Counted from the first letter of the stretch, positions 4,508 to 62,010 are shown. The stretch is DNA of 64,000 nucleotides from a virus (IMGVR_UViG_3300009157_000016:1-64000); one strand, 5' to 3'. Notes: a model not told the origin generated them from the letters alone. A program made the numbers and translations.

Positions 4508-4512
4508 GCTAC

Positions 4513-4541
4513 ACGTTACCATAGGCGTTACACAGTGTCAA
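4513..4541 (-). promoter_or_regulatory. sigma70-type promoter (leftward)
   Basis: TTGACA (4541-4536), 17-bp spacer, TAACGT (4518-4513). Confidence 0.8.
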
Positions 4542-5288
4542 CCTAGCCAAAAGGATAATTTTGAGCCTGTGCAAAAGATAAGGCAGCTCATCCTGCTACC
4601 ATCCTCGCACCCATCTTCATCGCATTCTTCATACCCATCTTATTCGTATATCTTCCCGCCCCTCATAGCAAAGAAGAAAGCAGATTCGAAAACAAATCTA
4701 GCAAACGGGATTAAGAGCAAAACCCCCAACCCCGTCAAACGACATAAGTGCAACAATGCCCGCAAGAAGGGGACCAAACCGCATCCATGTGTAGGAGGAA
4801 TCGAAAACAAATCTAGCAACCAAGGATCAGGAGCTAACTCCTTGTCCAGCCAACGAATAAACAACAAAGCCCCAAGGCCCAAGAGAAGCGGTTCCCAGTG
4901 TCCTAAGATGCAAACGTTCTAGCAGTCCTACGACTCTAAGAAAAGCCCCATCCAGCAACCTTACTCTTCCTACGTCCCACCCCCGTCACATAGAACAGGT
5001 TCCTAGGACAAAGCAAACCGACACCAAGAGGATAATCCTGCCAAAGACACCAAGAATGCAGCTTATGTGGACAGCACTCCCCATAGAGCCCACTGGACCC
5101 ACAATGCAGCTTAAGAAAACAGGAAACCCACGTAGTCCGTTGAAAAAGCCTGTCTAAGGCCGCCTCCCCTCAAGAAGAATTAATCGTGGACTGAGAAGAA
5201 CAGGACAGACTCTATCGTGTTCTTTCTTCCCCACAGTCCCCCATACCACATAAGGGGGTTTGCTAGAAGAACAAGATACTCTTCTTTG

Positions 5289-5416
5289 GCACGACCCGCA
5301 GGAATTATATGCACGACAGGACTCAATTCCCTTGCACGAGCAGGTTCAATTCTTGTGTGCGACGCTGGGTATTTCTTCACACCGACCATGTGGAATAGTG
5401 TAGCACGACTATCAGG
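5289..5416 (+). repeat. imperfect ~22-23 bp tandem repeats GCACGA..CAGG..AATT
   Basis: Units start at 5289, 5311 and 5334; weaker copies at 5359 and 5403. Confidence 0.6.
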
Positions 5417-16022: not shown

Positions 16023-16592
16023 TCACAAGAAGCCGGGGTCTTTCGTTCCCAGCTCTATCACTATACTGCCGCTCAACCTATGCACTGGCAAGACGCCCGG
16101 TTCTTGGAACTTGCCGCGTCGGTTCCAGACTTCTGCCTGTTGCGTCACGGCATCGGCCCAAATGACGTGGTCGAGTTGTTCGCCACGATACCAAACCGAC
16201 ATCCTTCGCCAATCCAAAGGCCAGCCTTGGCGCACGTACGGTACCAGATTCTCCGCGCGCAGGGCAGCTATAAGGCTGCCCTGTAACGCAAAGCGAGCCA
16301 TCTTGGTTGCACTGAGGCTGTTAGAGGGGTCGACCAGCGCCGGCCCGCCGTCAGGTCGGTGCCATATCAGGGCGTGGAGGCCATTGAGGGGAAGGTCGGG
16401 GGAGCCCATGAGAAGAGCGTTTTCAACAGATCCCCATCCGGTGTTCCAGATGCGATCAATGCGGTCAGGTGATGCAAGGTCGTTCGCCGTGCATCCCAGC
16501 GCCTCAGCGGTCACCTTGGTCCAATCCTCATCCGCCTGATTAACCAAAAGCAGGTACCGCAGTGCTGAGACTTTGACCGATTCTATCTGCAT
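16023..16592 (-). CDS. hypothetical protein
   Basis: MQIESVK start with GGAGG RBS; divergent from the head genes. Confidence 0.6.
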   Translation of the reverse strand: MQIESVKVSALRYLLLVNQADEDWTKVTAEALGCTANDLASPDRIDRIWNTGWGSVENALLMGSPDLPLNGLHALIWHRPDGGPALVDPSNSLSATKMARFALQGSLIAALRAENLVPYVRQGWPLDWRRMSVWYRGEQLDHVIWADAVTQQAEVWNRRGKFQEPGVLPVHRLSGSIVIELGTKDPGFL

Positions 16593-16677
16593 GGATAAAT
16601 CCTCCGGTTGACTTTTGACGAAATCGGGGCTTTTGTCCACGGTTATACCTTTCCCACGCAAGCAGGGTGTAATCCCG

Positions 16678-18531: not shown

Positions 18532-18588
18532 TTCGAGCCTTCCTTCAACAGCGGCCTGAGCGCCGCAAGTTTGCAAGGCTGTAAAGGA

Positions 18589-19842
18589 ATGAGCAAAGTC
18601 ACGAAGCAAGAGCTGCGGGAAGTCGTCAACGACTCGCTGGCTCCCATTGTCGCCGCCGCAATCTCGAAGGCTCTCGGCCGACCGGAAAGCGACGACGACA
18701 GCAATCTGCCGTCGACTCGGTCTTCGCAGTCGCGTGAGTTGCAACTGTACCGGACCCCCGGTGCAATCATCCGCGCACGGAAGTTCGAGATCAAGCCGGA
18801 ACAGAAGGGCATCGCTGCTGCCCGCTACGTTCGCGCCCTTGCGGCGTCGCGTGGCGACGTGGGCCGCGCACGGCACTTCCTCAAGACCCTGTACGACGAC
18901 GAACTGAGCGTGGAAATCCAGCGCGCCATGATGGCGGGCGAACTGATTTCCGGCGGTGCCTTGATTCCTCCCGAATACGCGGCGGAGATCATCGAACTGC
19001 TTCGCTCCCGGACCGTCGTTCGTGCGGCCGGTGCGCGGCGCCTCGACATGGACAGCGGTTCGCTGACCATCCGGAAGCAGACGGCCGGCACCACGGCCTC
19101 GTACGTTGGTGAGTCGCAGGACATTCCGGTGACCGAACCGGAAGTCGGCCTGATCAACCTCGTGAGCAAGAAGCTTGCGGCAATCGTTCCCATCTCGAAC
19201 GACCTGCTCAAGTTTACGAGCTCGCCGGCCGCCGACGAGTTCGTGCGTGACGACCTTGTCCTGGAGATCTCGATCCGCGAGGATCGTGCGTTCCTCCGTG
19301 ACGACGGCACGCAGAACACCCCGAAGGGTCTCAGGCATTGGGCGCTGCCCGGCAACCTGATCCCGATGGAGGGCACCGGCACCGCGACGGACATTGAAAC
19401 GGACTTCCGCGATCTGGTCAACGCACTGGAAAGCGCTGACGTTCGTCTCATCCGCCCGGCGTGGTTCATGCATCCGACCCGCAAAAACTACCTGCGGACC
19501 TTGCGTGACTCGAACGGCAACCTGATCTACCCCGAGATTCGGACTTCCAGCCCGACGCTCTACGGGTGGCCGGTCTTCACCACGACGTCGCTTCCCGCCA
19601 ACCTTGGCGGCGGCGGCAACGAGTCGGAAATCATGCTCGTCGATATGGTCGACGCGATCATCGGCGAAGCCACTTCGCTGGAGATCGTCGTGGACGCTTC
19701 GGCTTCCTACGTCGAGGGCGGCGTGATGAAGTCGGCGTTCAGCCGCGACGAGACGCTCATCCGTGCCATCAGCCGGCACGACTTCGCAATGCGCCATGCA
19801 GAGTCCGTCGCCGTCAAGACCGGCGTGACTTGGGGCGGCTGA
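18589..19842 (+). CDS. major capsid protein (HK97 fold)
   Basis: GGALIPPEYAAEIIELLR, YVGESQDIP, KKLAAIVPISNDLL, AFSRDETLIRAISRHDF. Confidence 0.95.
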   Translation: MSKVTKQELREVVNDSLAPIVAAAISKALGRPESDDDSNLPSTRSSQSRELQLYRTPGAIIRARKFEIKPEQKGIAAARYVRALAASRGDVGRARHFLKTLYDDELSVEIQRAMMAGELISGGALIPPEYAAEIIELLRSRTVVRAAGARRLDMDSGSLTIRKQTAGTTASYVGESQDIPVTEPEVGLINLVSKKLAAIVPISNDLLKFTSSPAADEFVRDDLVLEISIREDRAFLRDDGTQNTPKGLRHWALPGNLIPMEGTGTATDIETDFRDLVNALESADVRLIRPAWFMHPTRKNYLRTLRDSNGNLIYPEIRTSSPTLYGWPVFTTTSLPANLGGGGNESEIMLVDMVDAIIGEATSLEIVVDASASYVEGGVMKSAFSRDETLIRAISRHDFAMRHAESVAVKTGVTWGG

Positions 19843-34268: not shown

Positions 34269-37200
34269 TGCAACTAGCTGTAGCCTTCGGCGCGCAAGGG
34301 CTTCTCAGCTCGGCCGGGTTGCTGCGGATTGGCCTTGGGGTCGGTTCCGCAGTTGCCATGTACATGCTTGGCAGCCGGGACAGTGAGAGCAACCGGCTCA
34401 ACGACCTCAAGGTGTCTTGCAGCACCTACGGGAAGGGTCTGCCCATTGTGTTCGGCACGATGCGCACGACCGGGAATATGATTTGGGCCACCGACTTTGA
34501 GGAGGAAAAATCCTACTTCGACTCCAAGGGCAAGGACATCACCGACAAGAAAAAGGCGGAGAAGAAGGGAACTGAGTTCTACGAATACTTCGCCAATTTC
34601 GCAATGGCCTTGTGTGAAGGTCCGGTTGATGAACTCCTGCGCGTATGGGCAGATGGGAACCTTATCTACGACAAGTACAACCCTGACAACGAGGACCTGG
34701 TCGGCCCCGGCTTCTCAACTGACGAAGAGGACGGCGGCAAGAGCGGCAAGACCGCCGGCAAGGGCAAGGGCAGTGAAGGCGGCGACTCAGGCCGCTTCGC
34801 TTTCCGCTTCTATGACGGCAGTGAGGAGCAGCTACAGGACCCGTTCATGGTGTCCAAGGAGGGCGTTGAGAAGGTCCCCGGCTACCGTGGTTGCTGCTAC
34901 ATCTTCTTTGAGCACTTCGCCCTGATGGACTTCGGCAACCGCTGCCCCACCATCACGGCCGAGGTCTCGGTCTTGAAGAAGCGGGCGGTCAGCTATGTCT
35001 ACGCCAAGCCCATCATGGATGAGGATGCGCCGCAGCCGGTTGACAACAATCTGGAAGACGCGGTGTACGTTGATCCCAATCGCTACCGCTGCTACGTGAT
35101 CAAGGACTCGGTGGAAGGCGGCCGGCTGGTTCAGGTCTACGACATCAGCACGCTGGAGGAAGTGACACGCGCCCGCATCACCGGCGAAGTGGACAGCATC
35201 CCGCAGTACAACGGCTTGGGCCAGTTCATAGGCTACGCGTCGCTCGACCTGGAGGCCCTGCATATCATTGGCGTCTCGGCCGAGGGTGATCTGGTAGGCG
35301 TGCCGGGCGGCGGCAACAGTCAGCCCATCGTCTTCCTTGATCCCAACACGTTCACTGCAAAGTTCGTGTTTGGTGCTTCGTCGGCCGACCTCAGCAACAC
35401 CGACTTAAGCATCCAGCACGCGGAATGGGCGGTGCCGCTTATGACGATGAGCGTGGACCCGGTGAGCGGGGAAACCACGCCTTACTTCGTGACCGGTATC
35501 ATCAGCCAGTTCGGTGACTTGGCGTTCTTCCAGAACGTCGGCGGGGTGTACAACTACACCTACCAGAACACTGCCATTCCCGGCAGCAGCCATTTTATCT
35601 TCCCCGGCCTGCCTGACGTGGACAGCTCGTTCATGTATGTGCAGACAGAAGGTAAGATCTATCGCTGCAACACGGTCGGCGCTCCCGTTGAAGGGACAAT
35701 GTTCGGTCAGGCTGACACAAGCGTCCTGATCTATGAGCCTACGCTGCTCCCGGCTGACATAAGCATCAGCGCGACGACTGTCCCGTCGGTGTTCGTGGGG
35801 GCTGAGTGCATTGGCTTCTTGGAGCAGATCAGCTCCAACGATCCGGCACGCGACGGCCTGTGGGCGGTCAAGCTGGACCCGTTTGACGGGACGGAACTGT
35901 GGCGCGGCAAGATCACCGACTCCAGCGGGTGGTACTACAGCGGCAGGATGCAGCAGACGCCTATCATCACCGGCAACAAGATCATGTGGCTGGGGCAGAC
36001 GGTGTCCTCAACCTACACCGTGTTCGAGGTGGACTACCGCACGCTGGAAATCAACAGCTTCATCCTACCCGAGGAGGGTTCCCCCAACGACGGCTTCGCC
36101 GGTCAGTTTCAGGCGTACTGGGCACCGGGCGGCTACATCCTGATTGGCGGCCTCATTGAGGATGGCTCTGAGTTTGACGGCGAGTGGTCAATCTTCCTTG
36201 CCAAGGTTGACAAGCTGTCTCAAGTGGCCGTGGGGGTGCGGGACATCTGCTCCGGCTTGTGTGAGCGCGTGGGCCTGCCGCCTGAGCGCTTCAATCTGTC
36301 GTCGCTGACGGACGACGAGATCATCGGCTACATCATTGAGGAACCGACCGGGGCGCGCAACGTCATTGAGGATCTGACGAAGATCTTCATGTTTGACGTG
36401 GTTGAGAGCGACTACGCGCTGAAATTCGTCACGCGCGGCGGTCCGTCCATCTTGACCATCCCGCAGGAGGACTTGGGCATCATCATTGAGGATACCCATG
36501 AGCCCTACAAGGAGACGACCGTCCAAGCCATTGACTGTCCCATGACGGTCAACATTGGATACGTCAACCCGGAGGAAGACTACAAGAACGGGATGCAGCA
36601 CTACAAGCGCCCGCGCAGCCCCATGCCGGTCATGCATTCCCGTGACGTGCTTGAGATCTCGTATCCTATGGCCATGACACCTGACTTCGCCAAGCAGACG
36701 GCGCAGAAGGTGTGCGTCAGCATTTGGGCAGAGCGCACGAACTACGACACGCTCCTGCCTTGGGAATACCTTGCCTACGACCCGGCTGACGTGGTGACGT
36801 TCGTGATGGATGATGGCTTCTCATTCGTCACGCGCTTGCTCAAGATGGACTTGGGCGGTGACTTCTCAATTGAGTCTGAGGCGTGCGGCTACCAGCCGGG
36901 CTCCTACAGCAGCGACATCCTTGCGGTGAAGCCCGGCCATACCTTCCCCATTCCCAGCCGGCCAGCGCCGGTTGTCTTCCCCATCGTGCTTGACGTGCCG
37001 TTCCTTAGTGACGGCGACGCCTCGGCGGGTGGTGGTGGCTTCTCATACTATTGGGGAGCGGGTGCCTACAGCCCCGGCCTCAAGTACGCTGCCCTAGAAC
37101 GGCGCGTGACACCGGGCGACTGGGAGCTTATGGACGCGACCAGCCATGAGGCTATCTACGGAACGGTTTTTGACACCGTGCCGCCGCCTCCCAACGGGCC

Positions 37201-37999
37201 GTTCGCAACGGATGATCAGACAGTGCTCACCCTAGCGCAGGCCCACAGTTTCCAGTTCGGCACGCAACAGTTCGAGTGGGTAAGCATTCCTGCTGCCAAC
37301 TGGCCGTCAGAGGACAACATGGTCATCATCGGAGACGAGGTGATCTTGTTCCGTGACGTGAACGAACTAGGCGACGGGCGGGTTGAGATCAGTCACCTGA
37401 TCCGTGGCTGGCGCGGCACTGAGAACGCCGCCTATGCTCACGTCGGGAAGTTCAATGAGACGTGGATCGTGGTGACGACCAACGGCGTGCGGGACGTGGC
37501 TGAGGACATCAATCTGATCAACACGCAGTTCCAGTTCAAGGCGGCCTCACCGGGTCTCATGATTAGCATCCCGCAAGTCTATCCCAAGGTGCTGACCGGT
37601 GCGTCCTTGAAGCCCTATGCGCCCGGCTATTTCAACCGGCTGGAGGACACGCCGGGGGCGGGTGACATCCGCATCACGTGGCAGCGTCGCACGCGCTACG
37701 GCGGCGGTCTCAAGAACGGGACGGCGGTGGTGCCGCTGAATGAGGAAGCGGAGGTCTATGACGCCTACATCCTTGCCGCACCATTTGACGCGACAACCTT
37801 CGACCCGGCCGACCCTGAAACCTTCGTGCGTGAGTTCCCCGGCCTGACCAGTCCGCAGTTGGACTACCTAGCGGCTGACTTGGCTACGGACGGCTTCACG
37901 CTGGCGAGCCCGCTGCACGTTGTAGTCTTCCAAATCAGTGCTACGGTAGGGCGTGGATTCCCCGGTAGCACTACCCTGTATCATTCCGTCGTGACGTGA
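34268..37999 (+). CDS. central tail tip / host-specificity protein (GTA megatron-like)
   Basis: STYGKGLPIVFGTMR..GNMIWA, ALCEGP, RVWADG, PGYRGCCY, LIRGWRGTE, ITWQRRTR. Confidence 0.9.
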   Translation: MQLAVAFGAQGLLSSAGLLRIGLGVGSAVAMYMLGSRDSESNRLNDLKVSCSTYGKGLPIVFGTMRTTGNMIWATDFEEEKSYFDSKGKDITDKKKAEKKGTEFYEYFANFAMALCEGPVDELLRVWADGNLIYDKYNPDNEDLVGPGFSTDEEDGGKSGKTAGKGKGSEGGDSGRFAFRFYDGSEEQLQDPFMVSKEGVEKVPGYRGCCYIFFEHFALMDFGNRCPTITAEVSVLKKRAVSYVYAKPIMDEDAPQPVDNNLEDAVYVDPNRYRCYVIKDSVEGGRLVQVYDISTLEEVTRARITGEVDSIPQYNGLGQFIGYASLDLEALHIIGVSAEGDLVGVPGGGNSQPIVFLDPNTFTAKFVFGASSADLSNTDLSIQHAEWAVPLMTMSVDPVSGETTPYFVTGIISQFGDLAFFQNVGGVYNYTYQNTAIPGSSHFIFPGLPDVDSSFMYVQTEGKIYRCNTVGAPVEGTMFGQADTSVLIYEPTLLPADISISATTVPSVFVGAECIGFLEQISSNDPARDGLWAVKLDPFDGTELWRGKITDSSGWYYSGRMQQTPIITGNKIMWLGQTVSSTYTVFEVDYRTLEINSFILPEEGSPNDGFAGQFQAYWAPGGYILIGGLIEDGSEFDGEWSIFLAKVDKLSQVAVGVRDICSGLCERVGLPPERFNLSSLTDDEIIGYIIEEPTGARNVIEDLTKIFMFDVVESDYALKFVTRGGPSILTIPQEDLGIIIEDTHEPYKETTVQAIDCPMTVNIGYVNPEEDYKNGMQHYKRPRSPMPVMHSRDVLEISYPMAMTPDFAKQTAQKVCVSIWAERTNYDTLLPWEYLAYDPADVVTFVMDDGFSFVTRLLKMDLGGDFSIESEACGYQPGSYSSDILAVKPGHTFPIPSRPAPVVFPIVLDVPFLSDGDASAGGGGFSYYWGAGAYSPGLKYAALERRVTPGDWELMDATSHEAIYGTVFDTVPPPPNGPFATDDQTVLTLAQAHSFQFGTQQFEWVSIPAANWPSEDNMVIIGDEVILFRDVNELGDGRVEISHLIRGWRGTENAAYAHVGKFNETWIVVTTNGVRDVAEDINLINTQFQFKAASPGLMISIPQVYPKVLTGASLKPYAPGYFNRLEDTPGAGDIRITWQRRTRYGGGLKNGTAVVPLNEEAEVYDAYILAAPFDATTFDPADPETFVREFPGLTSPQLDYLAADLATDGFTLASPLHVVVFQISATVGRGFPGSTTLYHSVVT

Positions 38000-38008
38000 G
38001 GACCTGAC

Positions 38009-38809
38009 ATGGCTGACAGCCCCATCCTTGGTATCCCTGAGGTCCTGCCGAACCAAGCGGCAAAAGAAGTAACGATAAACGATGGCTTTTCCATCTCTGA
38101 GCGCGCGGCCAACGCGACCGGTGTGGTGGATATGACTGCCGGCAACGTGGACCTGACAGCATCTCCCAACGACTTCAAGCATCACATGGTGCTGCGGTGC
38201 GAAGGCCACACTGTTCCGCGCACGCTTACCATTCCAGCACAGGAGCGGTGGTTCGCTGTCCACAACGCTGGAACGGGGGTGGTGACCGTGGACCCCGGCG
38301 CTGGCGCTTCTGTGAACGTAGCTGTTGGTTCTAAGTGCCTCCTTGCTTGCGACGGCGTAGACGTGGAACTGATTGCCGACAGCGCGGCGGTGACAATTCC
38401 CGGATTGGATGGCCTTACCGACGTTACCATCACGACGCCGGTAGCTGGTCAGATTCTGGAATACAATGGTTCTGCGTGGGTGAATGGCAGTCGCTATCCC
38501 GCGCCGGTCAACATCACGGCGACTGGGGAAATCAACGCCGCTTCGCACGCCGGAAAGTTCCTGCACGTCAGCAGTGCGACGGACGTTACTTTGACCATTG
38601 ACGCGGAAGCTGACGGCGCATGGCCGGCTGATACTGAGATGAGCGGTGTCCAGTACAATACTGGAAAGGTTATTTTCGCTGTGCAGACGGGCAGCCTGCG
38701 AGTTCCTACAGGCTGCGAACCGAACACACGCGATCAGTATTCCAGCTTTGCGCTCAAGCGGCTTGCTTCCAATGAATGGCTTCTTACGGGGGATTTGGAA
38801 CTGACATGA
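38009..38809 (+). CDS. tail fibre-associated protein (DUF2793-like N-terminus)
   Basis: SPILGIPEVLPNQAAKEVTIND; GLTDV...GQILEYNGSAWVN. Confidence 0.75.
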   Translation: MADSPILGIPEVLPNQAAKEVTINDGFSISERAANATGVVDMTAGNVDLTASPNDFKHHMVLRCEGHTVPRTLTIPAQERWFAVHNAGTGVVTVDPGAGASVNVAVGSKCLLACDGVDVELIADSAAVTIPGLDGLTDVTITTPVAGQILEYNGSAWVNGSRYPAPVNITATGEINAASHAGKFLHVSSATDVTLTIDAEADGAWPADTEMSGVQYNTGKVIFAVQTGSLRVPTGCEPNTRDQYSSFALKRLASNEWLLTGDLELT

Positions 38810-39582
38810 GCATACATCCCTTTCCTCTGGGAATTGTTTCCAGTCCTCTCATCGGGAGCGCGGGTGGCGGCGGCGGGCCGGCAACGGACCCGTTCTTCGC
38901 CAACGTCCTTGCGTTGCTCAACTTCCAGACGTCGGTTATCACGAATAGCGGACCTTCCGGGTTCACCTTCACGTCCTCCCTTGTCGCACTGACGACAGGA
39001 TCAGGCGGTAAGTTTGGGGAAGGTGTGCATCAGCCTACCGGAGCGGTCGGCAGCCACACCTTCCAGGGTGTGAACACCGACAATTGGGATTTCACCACGG
39101 TAGACTTCACGGTCGAAGCTTGGGTTTATCGTGAGAACGCTGTGACCAAAGCTTTGCTCTCTCATTGGCGCAATGCCAGCTCGCAGCAAGCGTGGTGGAT
39201 GGGCATTGATGGCACTGGCCATCTTCGCGTTGATTTCAACGCGCCGGTCTCGACGCCGCTTAATATCGTGGATACCGGCGTGATGTCGAACTCTGCTTGG
39301 GATCACGTGGTCTTTGAGCGCGCCAGCACTACGTTCCGCCTCTACAGGAACGGGGCTATGGTCGGTACCAAGATCACTGGCAATTCCAGCTCCCTAGCGG
39401 CCGTGACAAACGCCGCTGACGACTTCCTGCGGATCGGCATTCTCGCAGGTGCGGCTCAGAATTTCTTCGACGACGACTTTCCGAACCAACGCATGGACGA
39501 GATTCGCATCACGCGCGGCACGGCGCGCTACGCTAGCGATGCCGGCTATACGGTGCCCAGCGCTCCCTTCCCGACCTCATAG
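38806..39582 (+). CDS. LamG/concanavalin-like receptor-binding protein
   Basis: DPFFANVLALL, DFTVEAWVY, WDHVVFER, LYRNG, MDEIRITRG.ARY. Confidence 0.85.
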   Translation: MSIHPFPLGIVSSPLIGSAGGGGGPATDPFFANVLALLNFQTSVITNSGPSGFTFTSSLVALTTGSGGKFGEGVHQPTGAVGSHTFQGVNTDNWDFTTVDFTVEAWVYRENAVTKALLSHWRNASSQQAWWMGIDGTGHLRVDFNAPVSTPLNIVDTGVMSNSAWDHVVFERASTTFRLYRNGAMVGTKITGNSSSLAAVTNAADDFLRIGILAGAAQNFFDDDFPNQRMDEIRITRGTARYASDAGYTVPSAPFPTS

Positions 39583-42832: not shown

Positions 42833-43560
42833 GGAATGACTGTGATGGGGCGGTCCACGCCCTTGCCAGTCAGAAGTTCTTCATCACGCTCTTGCAGCAC
42901 TTTCTGCAAGCGCCGCGTTCCTTCCACAATCAGATCATTCTCAACGAACTCAGAGGCGGTAGGCGCTAGGCCCATCTGCATGAGTTCCTTGGCGCGCTCA
43001 GACGGCTCGTAGATGGGACCCTGTGGCTTCTTGCGCTGATGCTGATACTTCCCGTCGTAGGGCTTGTTGGTAGGATGGTCCAGCCAGTCAAAGATCATCT
43101 GGCAGACCGGATCACCCTTCTTGTAGGTCACGTTGGCGGTTCCAAGGTTGACCAGCTCCAACGTGCCGTTGCCCCAAAAGCCGGGATCAAAGAACGTGTT
43201 GAAGGCGGACACGAAGACCCGCGCGTAGGTGCTTTTGTCGCACACGCCGCCTGACACTTGGTCGGGCATGTAGAAGTCTTCCAGTGTGTAGGCCAGCGCC
43301 GCCATAGGCGGGTTGTTGCTCAGCTTGTCCTTGAGCAGCTCCACGTTTGCGAAGCCGTGCTCCAGGATGTGGTCGGAGATGATATGGGCGGGATTGATCC
43401 CAAGGATCAGATCGTGGTCAATGTGGCAGTCGTAGGAAGCCGAGCTGAGCCCGCCTGACTTGCCGTTGATCACGACCTTCTCTCGCCGGAACGGAGAGAT
43501 CATCGGCTGGTTTGTGTCTGCGCACAACGCTAGAATGCTTTGATGGGACAGCCGAGCCAT
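42829..43560 (-). CDS. dcd: dCTP deaminase
   Basis: SGGLSSASYD, DKSTYAR, FDPGFWGNGTLELVN, VCQMIF, YDGKYQHQ. Confidence 0.9.
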   Translation of the reverse strand: MARLSHQSILALCADTNQPMISPFRREKVVINGKSGGLSSASYDCHIDHDLILGINPAHIISDHILEHGFANVELLKDKLSNNPPMAALAYTLEDFYMPDQVSGGVCDKSTYARVFVSAFNTFFDPGFWGNGTLELVNLGTANVTYKKGDPVCQMIFDWLDHPTNKPYDGKYQHQRKKPQGPIYEPSERAKELMQMGLAPTASEFVENDLIVEGTRRLQKVLQERDEELLTGKGVDRPITVIP

Positions 43561-43877
43561 TACCTTCTCCTCTTGCTCCGGTAGACCTTCTCCGGGCTTG
43601 CTAGGACCCGCGTGCAAAGCTTGTGATGCTTCTCGCACCAACTCTTACCCGGCAAAACGGGGTCTCCGCAATAGCGTGCTTTGGGGTCCCGCAGTTCACC
43701 GTAGATGTACTTGCATTCGTCAAAGTTGGGTATGTTGCCTAGACGGAACTTGGCAAGCTTCTTCGCTTTGCGTTCTTTGTAAGCTTCCAAGTTGAAATCA
43801 GGCGGCAGGCGTTCCCGGTGCTTAGGCGGCCATAGCCGCGCAATGTCCTCCTCAGTGAGGCGAACCCGGTGTTTCAC
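43560..43877 (-). CDS. GcrA-like regulator (C-terminal Cys/His domain)
   Basis: ECKYIYGE..D..ARYCG.PV.PGKSWCEKH matches the GcrA C-terminal pattern. Confidence 0.7.
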   Translation of the reverse strand: MKHRVRLTEEDIARLWPPKHRERLPPDFNLEAYKERKAKKLAKFRLGNIPNFDECKYIYGELRDPKARYCGDPVLPGKSWCEKHHKLCTRVLASPEKVYRSKRRR

Positions 43878-49931: not shown

Positions 49932-51503
49932 TTAGTCCCGGTCGCGCCTCCGGCGGTCCCGGTCGTCGTCCGGGTCGTCATAGCGGGTGCGCTTCTTGTC
50001 ACCGCGATCGTCGTCACGGTCGCGCTTGCGGTCACGGTCGTCGTCATCATCCCGACCGCCGCGCTTCTCGCCGACGTCACGTTTGCGGTCGTCGTCCTTG
50101 TCCCGGTCCTTGCTGCGCTCACGCATCTCAGCAAGACGGTCCTTCACGTTGCGGCGCTCACCCTTGTCGTCGTCATCGCGCTTCCGGTCCCGGTCCCGGT
50201 CATCGTCATCACGGTCGCGACTGCGGCTGCCACGGTCAACGTCATCCCGGTCACGGCTGCGGCGGTCGTCCTTGTCGTCGTCACGGTCACGCCCGCGCCG
50301 GTCATCACGGTCGTCATCCCGGTCACGGCTGGCACGACGATCATCCCGGTCATCATCACGGTCACGCCGGCCACGACGATCGTCGTCGTCTTCGCTCCTC
50401 TTCCGTGACGACCCACGGTCATCATCACGATCGTCGTCCCGGCCACGGCCGCGCACCGAACCACGATCATCATCATCCCGGTCACGCCGGCCACGGCCTG
50501 AGCCGCGTTCGTCATCATCCCGGTCACGGCTGCGCCCGCCGCGCCGGTCGTCATCCCGGTCACGGTCACGGCTACGGCCACCACGACGATCGTCTTTGTC
50601 GTCGTCGTCCGTTTCAACGCGGACGTGGCCGCCGAAGGCCGCTTCAATGTGGTCGTAGTCGTGGTATTGCAGGACATCAGGGATGGGATTTTCCTTGATG
50701 TAGTCCAGCACGTCCTGCATGTCACGCTTGTTGTCCAAGATGGGACCGCTGGGGAGGATCTTCATCTTGGACGCCGGGTACTTGGTATTGCGGCCGGTGC
50801 CTTCACGGTAGAAGCGGATGTCGTTCCCGTCGTAAGGGTCATCAATGTAGATGAGCGCCTTGGTGTCCTCGTCAACCGTCAGGTTGGCGATGTCCTTGTC
50901 GAACGTCCACGCCATTGCCCAAAACTGAGCGCCTTCGTCAGGAGCGTTCTTGTCAAGGACCCACACGCCCTTCCGCTTCTTGGGCGTCAGGGCTTTGGCC
51001 AGCTTCTCGTCGCCGTCCTTTTCAGCATCACGGCGGGCCTCATCCAGCGGGTCCCTCTTGCCCAGCATCTTGCTGAGGCTGAGGTACGTCTGCGAGTCGA
51101 CGCCAATGCCGTAGTTGCAGTAGATGTCGTAGCAGTAGTACTTCGCATCGTCCCACGTGGGCGGCAGGATGCGGATCGTGTTCTTGCCTTCCTTTGGCTT
51201 GAACACCTTGATCCCATCCTTTACGATGGAGTCGAAGTTCCCTCCGCTTTGGTTGGCGGCTTCCCGCACGGCTTCACGCGACGTGCGCTTGTAGACAAAG
51301 CTACCACCACGACTGGAGCCGCGATCATCATCACGGTCACGATCACGCGAACGACCACGGTCACGATCCCGGTCATCGTCGTCCCTCCCACGGCTTGAGC
51401 GCCTGTCGTCATCATCCCGGCCACGGCGACGATCGTCGTCCCGGTCACGGTCGCGATCCCGGTCATCATCCCGGTCACGGCGTCTATCGTCATCACGTGC
51501 CAT
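49932..51503 (-). CDS. gp32-like single-stranded DNA-binding protein with Arg/Asp-rich N- and C-terminal tails
   Basis: Core FKPKEGKNTIRILPP...DDPYDGNDI...GTGRNTKY; RDRDDD repeats on both sides. Confidence 0.8.
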   Translation of the reverse strand: MARDDDRRRDRDDDRDRDRDRDDDRRRGRDDDDRRSSRGRDDDDRDRDRGRSRDRDRDDDRGSSRGGSFVYKRTSREAVREAANQSGGNFDSIVKDGIKVFKPKEGKNTIRILPPTWDDAKYYCYDIYCNYGIGVDSQTYLSLSKMLGKRDPLDEARRDAEKDGDEKLAKALTPKKRKGVWVLDKNAPDEGAQFWAMAWTFDKDIANLTVDEDTKALIYIDDPYDGNDIRFYREGTGRNTKYPASKMKILPSGPILDNKRDMQDVLDYIKENPIPDVLQYHDYDHIEAAFGGHVRVETDDDDKDDRRGGRSRDRDRDDDRRGGRSRDRDDDERGSGRGRRDRDDDDRGSVRGRGRDDDRDDDRGSSRKRSEDDDDRRGRRDRDDDRDDRRASRDRDDDRDDRRGRDRDDDKDDRRSRDRDDVDRGSRSRDRDDDDRDRDRKRDDDDKGERRNVKDRLAEMRERSKDRDKDDDRKRDVGEKRGGRDDDDDRDRKRDRDDDRGDKKRTRYDDPDDDRDRRRRDRD

Positions 51504-52214: not shown

Positions 52215-53192
52215 CTAGGCCCGGTGGAGTTCCAGAACCAAGCCAATGGAAACGTAGAGGGGAGCGTACTTGGCGGAATTGTCATAGGGCGTTGAGAAGC
52301 ATTCGATGATCCTCAGCAGGCTCGCAGCGCGGCGGTGATCAGTCGTCTTGGCCGCCACCTTCGCCATGTAGTGGCACGTAACGATGCGAATGCTTTCAGC
52401 GTCCTGATTGGCTTCCTCCATGTCCTTGCAGATGCGCATGGCGTCCTTCCATGTGCCCTTGGGCTTCATGAGGAACTGGCAGAAGTCATTGATTTCCTTC
52501 GTCTCACCGGCCAGCCTTAGCGCCTCACGCGCGTCGGTCACCGTTTCGCAGTACTCAACCTTCTCAAGGTAGGTCAAAGCCTGCCGTGGTGAGCCGCCGC
52601 TGTTCTCAGCAATCAGCTCTAGTATCTCATCCTCCACCTTGAGGTCCGCCTTGTCCATGACCTCGGCAAGGATGAGCAGAATTTCATCCTCACTGAGCGG
52701 CTTGAGATGGTAGTCAATGCACCGCGTCTTGATGGTGGCAGGAACCTTGCCGGGCAGCGTGGTGCAGAAGAACCAGTACACGTGCTTGGGCGGTTCCTCC
52801 GTGGCCTTGAGAATGCTGTCCCATGCGTTGCTGGACAGCTTGTGGCACTCATCCACGATGATTCCTTTGACCGGACTGTCGCCAATTGCCCGGTAGTTGG
52901 CCTTCTGGACAATGCTGCGCATGGCGTCCACACCGGTATGCGTGGCAGCGTCCACGTCGAGGATGTTCGCCAGCGTGATAGTGGCATCGTCGCTCTTGGC
53001 CCCAAGCAGGGCAAACTCGTTCGCCACAATGCGGGCAAGCGTCGTCTTGCCAAGGCCGGAGCCGCCCGTGAACAGGAAGGTGTGGGCACGCCCCTCCTTC
53101 ACGACCTTGCGCAAGGACTTCACGACGGCGTCGTGTCCAATGACGTCCTTGAATACGTTCGGCCGATAGGCGGTGTGTAGTGACGTGCTCAT
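52215..53192 (-). CDS. clamp loader, DnaX (gamma/tau)-like
   Basis: YRPNVFKDVIGH, GGSGLGKTT, DAATHTGVD, VDECHKL, LKATEEPP, TIKTRC. Confidence 0.92.
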   Translation of the reverse strand: MSTSLHTAYRPNVFKDVIGHDAVVKSLRKVVKEGRAHTFLFTGGSGLGKTTLARIVANEFALLGAKSDDATITLANILDVDAATHTGVDAMRSIVQKANYRAIGDSPVKGIIVDECHKLSSNAWDSILKATEEPPKHVYWFFCTTLPGKVPATIKTRCIDYHLKPLSEDEILLILAEVMDKADLKVEDEILELIAENSGGSPRQALTYLEKVEYCETVTDAREALRLAGETKEINDFCQFLMKPKGTWKDAMRICKDMEEANQDAESIRIVTCHYMAKVAAKTTDHRRAASLLRIIECFSTPYDNSAKYAPLYVSIGLVLELHRA

Positions 53193-53512
53193 CTTCGTTT
53201 ATCCTTTCGCTTCCCCTGTTGGCTCATGTGAAATATACCGTTCGCACAGTCAGGGCGCTCCCCATTGCACGGCCTCCAGTAGATGTGTCCGCACAACGTA
53301 CACTCAGTTGGCTTGTCACCGGGGAACGCTGGATACATCGTTCGGTGGTCACCGGCTTTGTACTCGGTCATGACCTCTATGGGTCCGTCGTCCAGCCTCA
53401 CCCGCTGACGGTGCGGCGGCGGGGCGGGCTCAGGCAGTATCAGGTCATCTTCGTCAAGCCTGACCCGTTTGCGGGGCACGACGGGCTCATCTAAACGCAC
53501 TCGCTTTTTCAT
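53189..53512 (-). CDS. protein with three RVRLD repeats and a C-terminal Cys motif
   Basis: KKRVRLDE, RKRVRLDE, RQRVRLDD; CTLCGH...C...C. Confidence 0.7.
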   Translation of the reverse strand: MKKRVRLDEPVVPRKRVRLDEDDLILPEPAPPPHRQRVRLDDGPIEVMTEYKAGDHRTMYPAFPGDKPTECTLCGHIYWRPCNGERPDCANGIFHMSQQGKRKDKRR

Positions 53513-53548
53513 CTGTTACCTCCATACGCCCCCGCAGGGCGCGGAGGC

Positions 53549-56266
53549 TTAGATACCCTGAGAATCGAATGACTTGTAGTTCTCGCTCCAGTACTTGCCC
53601 ACGGGCTCAAGCTTGTTCCACTTCTTGCCAATGGACACTTCCACGCTCATAGGCACGTTGATGAAATCATACGGGAGCAGAAGCAGTTCGCGTGCCAAGT
53701 AGCTGATCTCATCTGCCAGTATGCTGTCCTTGTCAGGCATCATGAACGTCAGGTCGTCATGGATTTGCATGATGGGATGACGGTAGCGGATCTTATGCTT
53801 GAGAGAGCTGCGGCTGATCCTCACCATGCCGTCGTTCACAATGTCAGCCGCCAAGGACTGGATGGGGCTGTTGTACAGTTCGTGTCGGCTCATGGGATAG
53901 TAGCGGCGGCGGCCGGTGAACGTTTCCACGTAACCCACGTCGTAGTAGGTCCGCATGGTCTCGTCCTGCCACTCCTTGAGGCCGGAGAACGTTTCCCAAA
54001 ACTCCTCAAAGATGTCCTGCGCCACGTTGTCAGGCATGGCCTCGCCAAGGAAGGGTAGGAAGTAGCTGGCAACCGACGGCTCAGCCGCACCAAAGATAAC
54101 AGGGAACACCATCTTGTTCTTGACCAGTGAGCGCGCACCCTTCAATGCGTCCTCGTCATTCTTCCCCTGCTTCTCCTTAAAGTAGTCGAACAGCCACGGC
54201 CAGCGCTTGCCAATTTTGAGCGCCCATTCCTTGTGAACGTCGTATTCCTTCCACGTAGCACCGACCATGTTCTTGTCATTGCAGAACATGCAGGCGGTAC
54301 ACCACTCCAACTGCCCAAAGTCCACGCTAACGAAGACGTGGCCTTCCAGCGCTTCAACTTGCTCCCTGATCCAAGCGTCCTTGTGCTTGGGCCAGTTCTG
54401 CATGTTGGGGTCGTCCGAACTGAGTCGGGCGGTGGTGGTGAAGGTCGTGTTGAAGGAAGTGTGGAGCTTGCCGTCGGGAAAGATGAGCGTGCCGTCAGGC
54501 AGGATCATCTGGTCGACGTACGTGCTCTTCATCTTCACTTTGTTGCGCAGCTTGATAATCAGCGGCGCAAGCGGATGGTCTATCTTCTCAAGGACGGCTT
54601 TGTCAACCTTCTCAGTGACTTTATCTGAGTCCTTTTTGTCCTTGACGAAGACCTCAGGCCGCTTTAGGTAGTCACGGAATATGGTAAGGACCTGCGGCTG
54701 CGACTCAGGATTGAATTCCCCTTTATGCTCACTGACATACTTCTTGACCACTTTGAGGCCAAGGATGTCATTTACGATACCCTTGACTTCGTCTTCCAGC
54801 TTGCCTTGCAGGCGCTTGGCGGTCTTCTGGTTGATGGGGACGCCGTAGTGCTGCATGAGAGCCACCGCGCCCTGACGCGGCATGGCCATCTCATAGACAT
54901 GCTCCTGCCTGATGTCCCTGATAAGCTTGTCCTGATGGAACCAGAGTTGCAGCGTGGCGCGCGTGTCAGCGCCATTGTAGATGAGGACCTGATCGTAGGG
55001 GCTTTTGCGCAGGTCCTTCTTGTCCAGCTTGAACTGGCTCTTGATGTCTATGCCGAAGTGCTGGCGTGTGAGGAAGCCTAGCTTTTGGTATTGCGAAGCG
55101 TGATCGTCCTGACCCTTCTCGTTTGGCCCTTTGCGGCCGTCAAGGATGTAGGCTTGGACCATTGTGTCTTCCCACGAGTTGTGGTGAACAATGTCTTCGC
55201 CAAAGTAGAAGATGTACCACTCCATCTCAAATGGAGAGTTGTGCGCAATCTTGGGGATGTCACGGCGGCGTATCAACGCCTCAAGCCGGTCAAGGATCTT
55301 CTGCCGCTGCGCTTTGGACCAGTTGGCCTTGGGATGGTCGACTCCGAACGAAAACGTTCTTAGTTTTAGGTGCCTGTCATAGTAGGAAAAGGCGGCCGTC
55401 AGAATGATAGCGCCGGTGCGGTAGGGTCTGAGAGGCCACGTCTCAAGGTCGGTGGCGTAGCAGGCAACTCCTCTCTCAATGTCGTCGAACTCCCGCATCA
55501 GGGAGTCAAAGTCATCCTCGGGGCGCTCACCGCTGTAGGTGTTGACGTCCTTCTTGACAGTCTGCTGAGTCCATACTTCCGGCCACGGCGGATCGTCGTC
55601 CATGAACCGCCATATCTGCTCAAAGTCCAGCTTCCACGCGCCACCTACTCGGCCGTTCAGCGGGCGTCTGTCATCCTTGGCCGACCGCAGGACGTAGGCA
55701 GGGTGATTGGTGGGGAAGAACCAGCACTCATGCTTTCCAATGGTGACCGCAAAGAAGCGGCCCCGCATACCTTGCATGTCTTTCGTGCCAAGCATCCACT
55801 GCAAGGCTGGGATGCCAAGGCCCACGATCAGCTTGGGGGCAGCTTCCTCAATGGCGGCGGTGACGTAGCCGCGACAGCACTCCTGCTCAATCCACTCCGG
55901 CGGCCGTATCTTACCCTCAGCGTTTTTGGGGAAGTGCCTGACTGTGTTCCCGTAACCGCAGTTGTCATAGTATTCGTTGGGGATCATGGACTTGAGAAGC
56001 TTGCCTGACTTCCCAATGAACGGTACGCCCTCCTGTTCCTCCTGCGGACCCGGTGCCTCACCTAGGAAGAAAATGTCGCATCTGCGTGGTACGTCTTCAC
56101 GGACCTCATTGCCGGCACGTGAGAGGGGGCAAGCGCGACAGCCTAGGCGTTGCAGCGTTTCCGAGCTTTGCTTCGTTTGCTGGCCTACCGAAGACCGGCG
56201 GGGGCCGGTTTTGTCGGCGCCCTTTTTCGCGTTCGCCTTATCTGCTTTCTGGTAGAAGAAGCCCAT
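53549..56266 (-). CDS. polA: family A DNA polymerase with N-terminal family-4 uracil-DNA glycosylase domain and 3'-5' exonuclease
   Basis: CRACPL, GEAPG, HPAYVLR (UDG); DLET, HNSPFE, YNGAD (exo); TARLSSDDPNMQN, DFGQLE, QIHDD (pol). Confidence 0.93.
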   Translation of the reverse strand: MGFFYQKADKANAKKGADKTGPRRSSVGQQTKQSSETLQRLGCRACPLSRAGNEVREDVPRRCDIFFLGEAPGPQEEQEGVPFIGKSGKLLKSMIPNEYYDNCGYGNTVRHFPKNAEGKIRPPEWIEQECCRGYVTAAIEEAAPKLIVGLGIPALQWMLGTKDMQGMRGRFFAVTIGKHECWFFPTNHPAYVLRSAKDDRRPLNGRVGGAWKLDFEQIWRFMDDDPPWPEVWTQQTVKKDVNTYSGERPEDDFDSLMREFDDIERGVACYATDLETWPLRPYRTGAIILTAAFSYYDRHLKLRTFSFGVDHPKANWSKAQRQKILDRLEALIRRRDIPKIAHNSPFEMEWYIFYFGEDIVHHNSWEDTMVQAYILDGRKGPNEKGQDDHASQYQKLGFLTRQHFGIDIKSQFKLDKKDLRKSPYDQVLIYNGADTRATLQLWFHQDKLIRDIRQEHVYEMAMPRQGAVALMQHYGVPINQKTAKRLQGKLEDEVKGIVNDILGLKVVKKYVSEHKGEFNPESQPQVLTIFRDYLKRPEVFVKDKKDSDKVTEKVDKAVLEKIDHPLAPLIIKLRNKVKMKSTYVDQMILPDGTLIFPDGKLHTSFNTTFTTTARLSSDDPNMQNWPKHKDAWIREQVEALEGHVFVSVDFGQLEWCTACMFCNDKNMVGATWKEYDVHKEWALKIGKRWPWLFDYFKEKQGKNDEDALKGARSLVKNKMVFPVIFGAAEPSVASYFLPFLGEAMPDNVAQDIFEEFWETFSGLKEWQDETMRTYYDVGYVETFTGRRRYYPMSRHELYNSPIQSLAADIVNDGMVRISRSSLKHKIRYRHPIMQIHDDLTFMMPDKDSILADEISYLARELLLLPYDFINVPMSVEVSIGKKWNKLEPVGKYWSENYKSFDSQGI

Positions 56267-56421
56267 CACTTTTCCGCTTTGAGTTGGTCGAGTCGCTTGC
56301 GGCATGTGGCAAGCAAGTCACGGTTCGCGAAGTCACCGTGACGCTTGAGTTCTGCCTCCTGCACCGCCAGCATGACGTCGACGATTTCGATCAGGGCGTT
56401 AACCTTCTGCACATCCGGCAT
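56266..56421 (-). CDS. hypothetical small protein
   Basis: MPDVQKVNAL...; GGAG RBS; coupled to polA. Confidence 0.6.
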   Translation of the reverse strand: MPDVQKVNALIEIVDVMLAVQEAELKRHGDFANRDLLATCRKRLDQLKAEK

Positions 56422-56422: not shown

Positions 56423-57478
56423 TCAGTCTCCGAAGTTGGACAAGATTTGGAAGAGGTCCGCCCCCTTCCGGTAGACCGTGAAGCCTTCCAGCACGGCCAT
56501 CTCTGAGCATACGTCAATGCTGCGCGCCATCAAAGCCGCGTTGACCTTGATCTCGACGTCTGGATGATCCCCTTGAAGGTTGACCAGATCGCGCACCTCG
56601 CCCATGTCGGTGTTCGTGTATAGGCGCATCCGGCCTTCCTTGATGCTGATCTCAGTGGGCTGCGATTTGGGCTCAGCCACGACACGCGCCCGGCTCAGAG
56701 CGTGCTCAAGTCCTTTGGGGACCTTCATCCACGGGATCTCATCCCGCGTGGTCTTTTCGACCCACATGGCGTGGTCCACCGGGTCTTCTGGTTTGATGAC
56801 GCGGCCGTAGACCTTGTAGTCCTTCTCAAGCTCGGCCAACACCCATTCGTCAGAAGCGTGCAGCCGGCCGTTCATGGACTTGTCGCTCTTGCAAATGCGC
56901 AGGACCGACTCGCAGAAGGAGTTGGGCATGACGAAGCTGTGCGGGTCGTTGTAGTTGGCTCCGTCGATCAGGTAGTGCGTGAGGCTGTCTGAGTCGCAGG
57001 AGTAGAAGCTGATCCCGTCACCGGTATCCAACGTGATGCCCATGAGCGCCTGTTGGCTGCTGTCCTTGCTGGTCGTGGTGAGGCAAATTTCCATCGCCTC
57101 AATCAGGCTGTCATCCAGGTCCAGCACCACGTCCCACGACTCGTCAGACGGTTCTTTGAACAGGAACTCTGACTCTGGCAAGTAGGGCAGGCGCATCTTG
57201 GACCGGCCGGCAATGAACACGACTTCGTGTTGCTGGTCGTCGAACTCAATCTCCACTTCCTCGGTGCGGCAGTTGCGCAGCAAGCCGAGCATGGTGTCGC
57301 CGTGGCAGGCGAAGGGCGCTACGCCGGACGTGCATTTGGCCACGATGCCTAGGTGGTCGTCCGTCGCGTACAGGGTGTCCCCTGTGAACACGAAGTTCTG
57401 GTAGACGGGAACCAAGTCCTGATCGGCCAAGGCGGGCTTGATCAGTTCCAACATCGTGACCAGTGCTTTGCGTCTCAT
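56423..57478 (-). CDS. DNA sliding clamp (beta-clamp, DnaN-like)
   Basis: ~351 aa; LYATDDH, QALMGI, SCDSDSL repeats of the beta-clamp ATD motif; same module as DnaX. Confidence 0.8.
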   Translation of the reverse strand: MRRKALVTMLELIKPALADQDLVPVYQNFVFTGDTLYATDDHLGIVAKCTSGVAPFACHGDTMLGLLRNCRTEEVEIEFDDQQHEVVFIAGRSKMRLPYLPESEFLFKEPSDESWDVVLDLDDSLIEAMEICLTTTSKDSSQQALMGITLDTGDGISFYSCDSDSLTHYLIDGANYNDPHSFVMPNSFCESVLRICKSDKSMNGRLHASDEWVLAELEKDYKVYGRVIKPEDPVDHAMWVEKTTRDEIPWMKVPKGLEHALSRARVVAEPKSQPTEISIKEGRMRLYTNTDMGEVRDLVNLQGDHPDVEIKVNAALMARSIDVCSEMAVLEGFTVYRKGADLFQILSNFGD

Positions 57479-57918
57479 AGCCTCACCCTTCTTGCTAGTT
57501 TCCAACGGCGCTTGGCCGATTGCTGCATCTTTGCGATAGATTCGGATGTGTGCCGCGTACCATACCTTATGTGACCTATACCTTTCTGCGTGACGCCGGA
57601 GTGACCCTTCTGAGATTTATGTTTGGCGTGACAAGAAGGATAGAGTTGATTCTGACTGTTGGTTCCATCAAGTAAGTGCGCGGCGTTGCAGCACGGATGA
57701 AATTCGCAGTCATGGAGAACCATTCTTGGCCATGCTGGCACGTAACCGTTCTCTAAGAAGAACGCCACGCGATGGGCAGTGTACTGTATGCTGTGACGAA
57801 CTGAGAATACTCCATGCCCACTGGTTTGCGTTCCGCCTAACCAAGGCCAGCATTCGTCGGGGCCGCGTCGGTCAACTTTGGACCAGAAGCGCGCTATGTC
57901 TTTAGCGCTGAGGATCAT
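57475..57918 (-). CDS. HNH endonuclease
   Basis: RFWSKVD..GPDECWPWLG, AHRVAF, VLHDC..PCCNAAHL..GT..QN; ends RRVRL. Confidence 0.9.
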   Translation of the reverse strand: MILSAKDIARFWSKVDRRGPDECWPWLGGTQTSGHGVFSVRHSIQYTAHRVAFFLENGYVPAWPRMVLHDCEFHPCCNAAHLLDGTNSQNQLYPSCHAKHKSQKGHSGVTQKGIGHIRYGTRHTSESIAKMQQSAKRRWKLARRVRL

Positions 57919-61302: not shown

Positions 61303-61875
61303 TCAAGCTGTTAACCACTCACGAAACGCGGCCACCAAGTCAGCGTCGCTATCCAGACCAAGAATGCGCTTGATCCTTGTGTTGAAGCTGGGGCGTGGAA
61401 GCCCACGGTGTCTCCTACTTGGTTTCCTAAGCTCTTGCAAGTGGCGGTCACTGGCGAACACGCTGAGAAGCAAAAGCACTTCCGGAGGCGCGTTCGCCAA
61501 GACAATAGACACTGACCCTTCGTCGGCAAGATTGCAAGCTAATTCGCTCACATCTTCTACGCCGTCAACGAAGGCGGACTTGCGTTCAATGTTCTTGTTT
61601 GCTAGGTCAATCAGCTCGTTCAGGAGAGCCGTCTTGTAGAGCGCCATGAAATGGGGCGCGTGCATGACGCGCGGATACTTGACTGTGCAGCGCTCGAATA
61701 CAATGTAGGCGTCTTGCAGGAGGTCGTCCATGCCACATAGGACTGGATCATAGCGCCATAGGTTTTCACGTAAGAACTTGATCGTGTAGGCTTTTATCAC
61801 CCCGTCCCATTCAGGATACCATTCAAGACGGACACGACTGGACAACTTTTCAAGCCGCACACGGCGCTTCGGCAT
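61303..61875 (-). CDS. sigma70 region-2-like factor
   Basis: MDDLLQDAYIVF...KY...F...Y...L.N..ID...K; GGAGAGG RBS. Confidence 0.65.
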   Translation of the reverse strand: MPKRRVRLEKLSSRVRLEWYPEWDGVIKAYTIKFLRENLWRYDPVLCGMDDLLQDAYIVFERCTVKYPRVMHAPHFMALYKTALLNELIDLANKNIERKSAFVDGVEDVSELACNLADEGSVSIVLANAPPEVLLLLSVFASDRHLQELRKPSRRHRGLPRPSFNTRIKRILGLDSDADLVAAFREWLTA

Positions 61876-62010
61876 GGCCCTCTCCCCGACATAGAGCAGC
61901 GCCCCATTGCCCGGCTGCACTTCGATGTGGGTAATGGGAGCTCTAGCTGCGAAAAGTGAGCCAAGCACTTTCACGTTTCAGAGGCAAATGGAATCTTGTC
62001 ATCCACACAG

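Follow-up and report, generated by a model that had tools for sequence, protein, structure and literature searches.

A triple-tagged small Cys4 protein in the replication module of an uncultured tailed phage, probably a client within a genome-wide RVRL tag system rather than a dedicated adaptor

The virus record IMGVR_UViG_3300009157_000016 (genome G000; 108,377 bp, 58% GC), of which the first 64 kb (64,000 nucleotides) constitute the window analyzed here, contains between its polA and clamp-loader genes a small gene (53189-53512) encoding the protein P0001. This protein bears three copies of a basic peptide tag, RVRL, ahead of a core with four cysteines (Cys4). On balance, P0001 is probably a tagged, predicted zinc-finger client of the replication module that carries a high dose of the tag, and not a purpose-built adaptor. 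RVRL itself would be a short linear docking motif, added in one to three copies at either terminus of proteins that work on DNA, and it may tether the tagged proteins to one common partner. The three tags of P0001 would then provide avidity, in a protein co-translated with the clamp loader. We infer both the docking of the tag to a hub and the identity of that hub.

The tag is a property of the whole genome. In the crude proteome of G000, made of longest open reading frame (ORF) calls (168 ORFs, 34,404 residues), RVRL occurs 17 times, for 1.64 occurrences expected from shuffles within each protein and a maximum of 6 in 500 rounds of shuffling. It is the most over-represented tetrapeptide of the genome, the Arg/Asp repeats of the single-stranded DNA-binding protein (SSB) aside, and all 17 exact copies lie at most 60 residues from a terminus. 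A chance origin is ruled out by the shuffles, the triple copy within 107 residues being far above chance. The synonymous codons rule out a repeat in the DNA or a regulatory sequence at the borders of genes, as those for Arg, Val and Leu vary between copies, including the three of P0001. Since the codons differ at each copy, selection acts on the peptide.

In the looser form R-[VI]-[RK]-[LY], with the near variant RTRY in the case of SSB, the tag is found on about 17 proteins of G000 (Table 1). Several copies end exactly at a C-terminal Leu, and in G000 about half of the tags have acidic residues immediately after them. The consensus drawn from 93 copies is P-[KR]-[KR]-[KR]-R-[VI]-[RK]-L-x-x-P.

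Conservation of the tag is documented first of all in the large terminase. Among the first 40 listed metagenomic relatives of this protein (P0004-P0043, 48-77% identical), 37 bear the motif or near variants once to three times in an N-terminal arm, ahead of the conserved LTPEALAYALPGG block. Two of these terminases, P0010 and P0013, carry three tags spaced by 8-9 residues. The closest complete genome, G005 (102,569 bp with terminal repeats, 52% GC, most genes 35-64% identical), tags the same orthologues, namely TerL, TerS, RecA, the resolvase and the orthologue of the 61303-61974 protein, and contains 10 copies of R[VI][RK]L near termini for 1.3 expected. Tags are also present on the metagenomic contig L111, whose clamp loader is 49% identical, and on L113, where an HNH nuclease ends in RPRVRL.

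The tag has dialects. Genome G008 (IMGVR_UViG_3300013121_000002; 107,975 bp, 62% GC) uses R-[KR]-R-L, with 8 copies observed for 1.6 expected, so that not every dialect keeps the Val of RVRL. This dialect appears as [VI]-E-R-[KR]-R-L at N-termini and as R[KR]RL near C-termini, for example in the genes at 34762-35076, 53158-53715, 72801-74288, 85180-85473 and 37984-39504. The tag is absent from more distant relatives with the same order of replication genes (G001-G004 and G006), in which looser versions such as RPRLD and HRSRLDD occur on some RecA N-termini and SSB C-termini. Clamp-loader relatives in IMG/VR (L001-L010, G001-G004) keep the synteny and have neither the tag nor a P0001 homologue, and the cultured terminase relatives Ruegeria RpAliso and Caulobacter CcrRogue have no tag. 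Two scans of genome contigs for a host gave no match, and a tRNA search of 60-108 kb was negative.

A reading of this DNA from the sequence alone had described P0001 as three RVRL tags followed by a CxxC...C...C domain, encoded between polA and the clamp loader. Translation confirms all three tags, with the Arg of RVRL at residues 4, 16 and 37; the cysteines C71, C74, C82 and C89 follow the spacing C-x2-C-x7-C-x6-C; and the gene is indeed flanked by polA and the clamp loader (53549-56305 and 52215-53192). Within the first 42 residues, the pattern [KR]-[KR/Q]-R-V-R-L-D-[DE] is repeated three times and separated by proline-rich spacers, which gives P0001 the highest tag density in the genome. 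The basic tail reads QQGKRKDKRR, and the GC content at third codon positions (GC3) of the gene is 0.66; its ribosome-binding site, GGAGG, is a strong one. An ATGA overlap between the stop codon of P0001 and the start codon of the clamp loader suggests that translation of the two may be coupled. A scan for promoters and terminators gave no excess over shuffles.

P0001 is not an orphan ORF. A word-indexed search returned the query alone, yet an exhaustive HMMER search of 1.8 billion representatives yielded five relatives with E-values from 5.7e-12 to 5e-4, and the best of these values establishes P0001 as a real gene. Two relatives carry two tags each, P0131 (91 residues, E 5.7e-12) and P0132 (90 residues, E 5.2e-10); P0134 (120 residues) and P0136 (81 residues) are without a canonical tag, and P0135 (45 residues) is reduced to the core. 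The core C-x2-C-x3-Y-x2-P-C-[ND]-G-x4-C is shared by P0001, these five proteins, P0138 and a copy in G008. Invariant columns (alignments A2 and A3) are C71, C74, Y78, P81, C82, G84 and C89, and tails rich in Lys and Arg are seen in P0131, P0132, P0134 and P0135. A profile search brought no further members, from which it follows that the Cys4 protein is very rare: it amounts to 6 clusters in 5.8 billion proteins, plus two copies in IMG/VR genomes.

In G005, a positional orthologue of P0001 (profile match E 1.3e-9) occupies the slot between polA and the clamp loader, overlaps the end of polA and stops 11 nt before the clamp loader. Its order is reversed, with the Cys4 core first and a single tag, KKRKRVRL, at the extreme C-terminus. 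The G008 copy, detected with a degenerate DNA pattern and located away from polA and the clamp loader, has 74 residues and ends with two dialect tags, ARKRLTE and VRRRIT. As it carries G008's own dialect, the tags on the Cys4 protein track the genome-wide tag. The number of homologue repeats, which the sequence-only reading had proposed to check, thus varies across the family (3, 2, 2, 1 or 0 tags, at the N- or C-terminus). Judging from these alignments, the defining and conserved part of the protein is the Cys4 core with its basic tail; the tags are optional, movable and follow the dialect of each genome. The idea of a protein built from tags has to be abandoned accordingly.

The four invariant cysteines presumably bind zinc. 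In AlphaFold2 (AF2) models, the predicted local distance difference test (pLDDT) score of P0001 is 55 for the protein alone and 65 with 6 sequences. Residues 1-60 have no secondary structure, the Cys region forms a small beta-hairpin (residues 61-100, mean pLDDT 65-75, low confidence) and residues 90-106 form a helix, also with low confidence. P0001 has no match in Pfam or PHROGs, and a Foldseek search of the Protein Data Bank (PDB) with the AF2 model gave nothing at E <= 0.001. Searches against PDB sequences gave only weak C2H2 matches (E >= 2e-4) confined to a linker-like PGDKPxxCxxC stretch, and those against the ESM Atlas only generic zinc-finger or AT-hook look-alikes. A C2H2 zinc finger is rejected: the core departs from the C-x2-4-C-x12-H-x3-5-H spacing, and its single histidine, His95, is not invariant. 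The protein comes closer to small C4 zinc ribbons and zinc knuckles. In common with these, it has a core of ~30 residues with invariant cysteines, four in number, a predicted beta-hairpin that comes after a CxxC knuckle, and a tail of basic residues. It differs from the canonical C4 ribbon in that only the first knuckle is CxxC, the second pair being C-x6-C within P-C-[ND]-G-x4-C (AF2 model of low confidence, mean pLDDT 65).

Table 1. P0001, its parts, its replication neighbours and the tag carriers of genome G000
Feature	Position	Strand	Description
P0001 gene	53189-53512	-	107 residues; disordered N-terminal half with three tags, Cys4 core, basic tail (translation)
Tag 1	53486-53509	-	residues 2-9, KKRVRLDE (in MKKRVRLDE)
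Tag 2	53444-53473	-	residues 14-23, RKRVRLDEDD
Tag 3	53387-53410	-	residues 35-42, RQRVRLDD
Cys4 core	53228-53311	-	residues 68-95, P-x2-C-x2-C-x3-Y-x2-P-C-[ND]-G-x4-C-x5-H; predicted zinc-binding mini-domain
Basic C-terminal tail	53192-53224	-	residues 97-107, predicted helical
Shine-Dalgarno GGAGG	53519-53523	-	6 nt 5' of the ATG at 53510-53512 (sequence reading)
ATGA overlap	53189-53192	-	TGA stop of P0001, ATG start of clamp loader
Clamp loader (gamma/tau-like AAA+), untagged	52215-53192	-	Pfam DNA_pol3_delta2, E 7.5e-18
UDG-exonuclease-PolA fusion polymerase, untagged	53549-56305	-	Pfam DNA_pol_A, UDG, exo1; C-terminal extension with VGKYWS
DnaN-type sliding clamp	56423-57505	-	phrog_947, E 2.6e-27; PDB 1vpk beta subunit, E 2.2e-9; net charge -25
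Large terminase			tag carrier; two copies, N-terminal
Small terminase			tag carrier; N-terminal
RecA			tag carrier; N-terminal
gp32-like SSB	49932-51503	-	tag carrier; near C-terminus (RTRY)
UvsY-like protein			tag carrier; C-terminal
PD-(D/E)xK resolvase			tag carrier; C-terminal
HNH nuclease			tag carrier; C-terminal
Methyltransferase			tag carrier; N-terminal
GcrA-like protein	43560-43877	-	tag carrier; N-terminal
61303-61974 protein	61303-61974		tag carrier; two copies
Five small proteins without annotation			tag carriers

The sequence-only reading had gone further and seen in P0001 a multivalent adaptor, cross-linker or decoy. A protein dedicated to such a role would fill several receptor sites together with its three tags; it would link receptor molecules, carry the untagged polA and clamp loader to the receptor via its Cys4 domain, or vie with the other tagged proteins for binding. 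There are arguments for this view. The tag density is the highest in the genome, and the gene stands between two large untagged replisome genes and is probably coupled in translation to that of the clamp loader; the same slot is used in G005. With polA, clamp, clamp loader, primase and helicases all untagged, a piggy-back carrier would make sense. The comparison with relatives makes it unlikely all the same. Homologues exist with zero to two tags or with one C-terminal tag, and triple tags are found on terminases too, so that multivalency is not special to P0001. In L111, a tag-bearing phage, polA abuts the clamp loader and no such gene is present in the 19.8 kb seen; in other relatives the slot holds unrelated small genes, and in G008 the Cys4 gene lies apart from both polA and the clamp loader. 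The Cys4 protein was not detected in most tag-bearing phages, with the reservation that a small gene can easily escape notice on a short contig. Tagged terminases are far more common than the Cys4 family (more than 35 clusters versus 6), which means that the tag system is independent of the Cys4 protein and speaks against a core role as adaptor, regulator or decoy. The tag number in the family, the triple-tagged terminases and the rarity of the Cys4 protein together argue against the adaptor.

The leading candidate for the partner of the tags, still a tentative one and suggested by the precedent of phage T4 and also that of Mu, is the acidic DnaN-type sliding clamp, encoded one gene further up from polA, which itself lies upstream of P0001 with the clamp loader downstream. 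No conserved non-structural protein is more acidic than this clamp. Across seven related, non-independent genomes, its net charge is -25, -17 and -27 in the tag-bearing G000, G005 and L111, versus -1, -7 and +10 in the tag-free G001, G002 and G003, and no parallel shift is observed for the clamp loader, polA, RecA or the helicases. Recombination proteins (RecA, SSB or the UvsY-like protein) are a less likely hub, and so is a host protein. In favor of the recombination proteins, looser, older versions of the motif are present on RecA N-termini and SSB C-termini even in tag-free relatives. A MoxR/VWA-peptidase pair was also considered as receptor and is unlikely, as it is present in tag-free G006 too.

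Several observations weigh against P0001 as a client docked through its tags on a clamp-type hub. The polA, clamp loader, primase and helicases of G000 are themselves without tag, and polA has its own conserved aromatic extension, [IV]GK[FY][WY]S, which is more like a clamp-binding motif. RVRL resembles no known clamp-binding consensus, and copies 9-21 residues apart cannot occupy the two clefts of one clamp ring. The clamp of G006 is acidic (-22), yet this genome has no RVRL, and the comparison of charges covers 7 related genomes. Finally, the presumed zinc-binding core of P0001 matches no fold or family. As a separate observation, the clamp is acidic across the whole terminase-related clade (G000, G005, L111 and G006).

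Hub-and-peptide networks are well known in DNA metabolism. Boxes binding the proliferating cell nuclear antigen (PIP boxes), beta-clamp motifs and SSB tails organize it in cells and in phage T4. In the case of T4, one interchangeable clamp-binding peptide is found at the C-termini of the polymerase (gp43), the late sigma factor (gp55) and the co-activator (gp33) (PMC2988020), and late transcription in phage Mu also employs the beta clamp (PMC12867686). More generally, beta-clamp-binding motifs and PIP boxes are terminal-arm peptides of diverse DNA-transaction proteins that tether them to one hub (PMC11139829, PMC9690074). Like these peptides, RVRL is short, sits on flexible terminal arms of unrelated DNA proteins and is tolerant of position. 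Unlike clamp-binding motifs and PIP boxes, it is basic and has neither Gln nor an aromatic residue in the 93 copies ([KR][KR]R[VI][RK]L), and it departs from the consensus sequences QL[SD]LF, QLxLxL and Qxx[LIM]xx[FY][FY] as well as from the LDFL type of T4. In contrast to T4, the polymerase is untagged here, RVRL is often in tandem (1-3 copies), and RecA, SSB and both terminase subunits are tagged.

In form, the tag recalls another class of peptides, the classical nuclear localization signals (NLSs), exemplified by PAAKRVKLD of c-Myc and PKKKRKV of SV40. Tag and NLS alike have, within a disordered stretch, the core K-[KR]-x-[KR] with hydrophobic and then acidic residues after it; KKRVRL, KRRVRL and KRRVKL are examples from the tag. 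Both are also found to work at either end of a protein, and an NLS gains strength with the number of copies. The tag differs from NLSs in its setting: ~17 proteins carry it, in a tailed phage whose expression signals are bacterial and whose type of host has no importin. G000 is recognizable as such a phage by TerL, TerS, portal-region genes, an ORF of tape-measure size and a GGAGG ribosome-binding site. NLSs have been documented in phage terminal proteins, which prime replication (PMC3609834); no terminal protein was recognized among the G000 proteins scanned. A full-text literature search brought nothing relevant on RVRL together with ‘phage’. The tag network resembles the hubs of PIP boxes, clamp motifs and SSB tails in function and NLSs in form, and by sequence or context it is a member of none of these groups.

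This resemblance underlies the idea that the tag is an address signal that sorts DNA-handling proteins into a phage compartment or condensate, P0001 being a strongly addressed cargo or carrier. PKKKRVRLD is nearly identical in form to a classical monopartite NLS, and the copies, one to three at either terminus, lie in disordered arms flanked by prolines and are confined to proteins acting on DNA. The ~290 residues of mixed Arg/Asp charge in SSB are a feature of the condensate type. Such sorting is nevertheless improbable: the proteins scanned include no recognizable shell, tubulin or importin-like repeat protein, the core replisome proteins are untagged, and a genome of ~108 kb is not of the jumbo nucleus-forming type. 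A eukaryotic NLS role in the normal life cycle is excluded by the bacterial-style host, as indicated by Shine-Dalgarno sites and tailed-phage genes.

Comparably improbable is a tag read by a host machine, either the N-terminal zinc-binding domain of ClpX or DnaK via a phage J-domain protein, that would remodel or assemble the tagged proteins or time their turnover. The N-domain of ClpX binds terminal basic/hydrophobic peptides such as LRVVK of SspB and RRKKAI of MuA, and RVRL, which occurs strictly at termini, has basic and hydrophobic residues in alternation and in several copies ends at a C-terminal Leu. A J-domain protein is encoded in G000 and G005 and not in tag-free G006, and conservation of the tag across phages of 42-62% GC would fit a universally conserved receptor. 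It would make little sense, however, to present an unfoldase with the terminase, RecA, SSB and a transcription factor, and the acidic residues that follow many tags are disfavored in DnaK sites. Moreover, the C-terminal part of the J-domain protein is not conserved between G000 and G005, with only 88 residues that align.

The tags could also bind nucleic acid directly in the manner of AT-hooks, which would make P0001 a small architectural DNA-binding protein equipped with three hooks, a zinc finger and the basic tail. Only DNA-handling proteins are tagged, in the outgroup G006 the corresponding termini of the orthologues bear looser tails of basic residues, G008 has Lys or Arg in place of the Val, and the GcrA-like protein of G000 has kept its tag without an N-terminal DNA-binding domain. 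Against this stand the invariant Leu and the mostly invariant Val/Ile, which are unexpected for contacts with phosphates or a groove, the acidic residues after about half of the G000 tags, which would repel DNA, and the strict four-residue core, which points to a protein pocket. Direct binding is thus to be regarded with the same skepticism as the host machine. Least probable of all is the most ambitious scheme, in which a clade of uncultured ~100-kb phages would have a sorting or hub system not yet described, with RVRL as its address label. One receptor, of the phage or of the host, would gather recombination, packaging, transcription and nuclease proteins at replicating DNA, possibly in a phage-made compartment or a condensate formed with the Arg/Asp-rich SSB, and P0001 would be the triple-labelled carrier of the untagged polymerase and clamp loader.

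Beyond P0001 as a tagged client, the tag system is more interesting than the protein itself. A different, basic peptide is carried by ~17 proteins of one phage and kept on the terminases of dozens of uncultured relatives. Its receptor, if found, would show what links replication, recombination, transcription and packaging in these phages, and the tag would also serve as a portable handle to recruit proteins. P0001 and its relatives, with zero to three tags on one small core, are handy natural baits.

Some of the tag carriers have features of their own. The match of the GcrA-like protein is weak (E 9.5e-5, below the Pfam cut-off). In G000 this protein has 105 residues and consists only of the tag and a C-terminal Cys/His domain, whereas its G005 orthologue (54985-55596; L147:14985-15596) has 203 residues with a full N-terminal helix-turn-helix-like domain and an RVRL at residue 121, in the linker; the C-terminal domains of the two align at E 5e-10. 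Loss of the N-terminal domain in G000 fits a tag that would supply DNA tethering, which counts in favor of the clamp as partner. The gp32-like SSB (Pfam gp32, E 4.4e-7, residues 104-251) has a core flanked by ~65 N-terminal and ~225 C-terminal residues, nearly all of them Arg, Asp, Gly and Ser, in place of which the SSBs of relatives have a short poly-Asp/Glu stretch and then a basic end. For the 61303-61974 protein, the label ‘sigma-like’ was discarded, as there is no Pfam match and the PDB matches are spurious.

The replication genes around P0001 show further variation. The C-terminal extension of polA (53549-53602) runs 10-20 residues beyond the canonical Pol I end G-x-x-W-x-x-[ML]. Among the polA genes of L001-L010, L110-L123 and G005, its motif, [IV]G[KTE][FY][WYFE]S, is found in all relatives that also encode a DnaN-type clamp, and the R5C-type polymerases (L008, L124 and L129) end at NWDEAK. 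The extension is a candidate clamp-binding motif of the polymerase. At a hot spot, the junction of polA with the clamp loader, unrelated small genes are present in L001, L002, L005-L007, L010, L110, L113, L117 and L123; they include ORFs of 49-140 residues, the tagged HNH nuclease of L113 and a Cys-rich ORF of 66 residues in L002. The junction is empty in L003, L004, L009 and L111.

Elsewhere in these genomes, a MoxR-like AAA+ ATPase (weak AAA_5) lies beside a DUF2201 metallopeptidase-plus-VWA protein, at 103962-105290 and 106084-107151 on the minus strand of G000 (3962-5290 and 6084-7151 in L013), and the pair is kept in G005 and G006. The tag-free G006 (IMGVR_UViG_3300005253_000193) has a common terminus of another kind: at 16415-18854, on the minus strand, nine tandem small ORFs of 68-108 residues end in [DN]xYNAF, and YNAF is found in 9 proteins of this genome for 0.09 expected, a paralogous array with a shared C-terminus.

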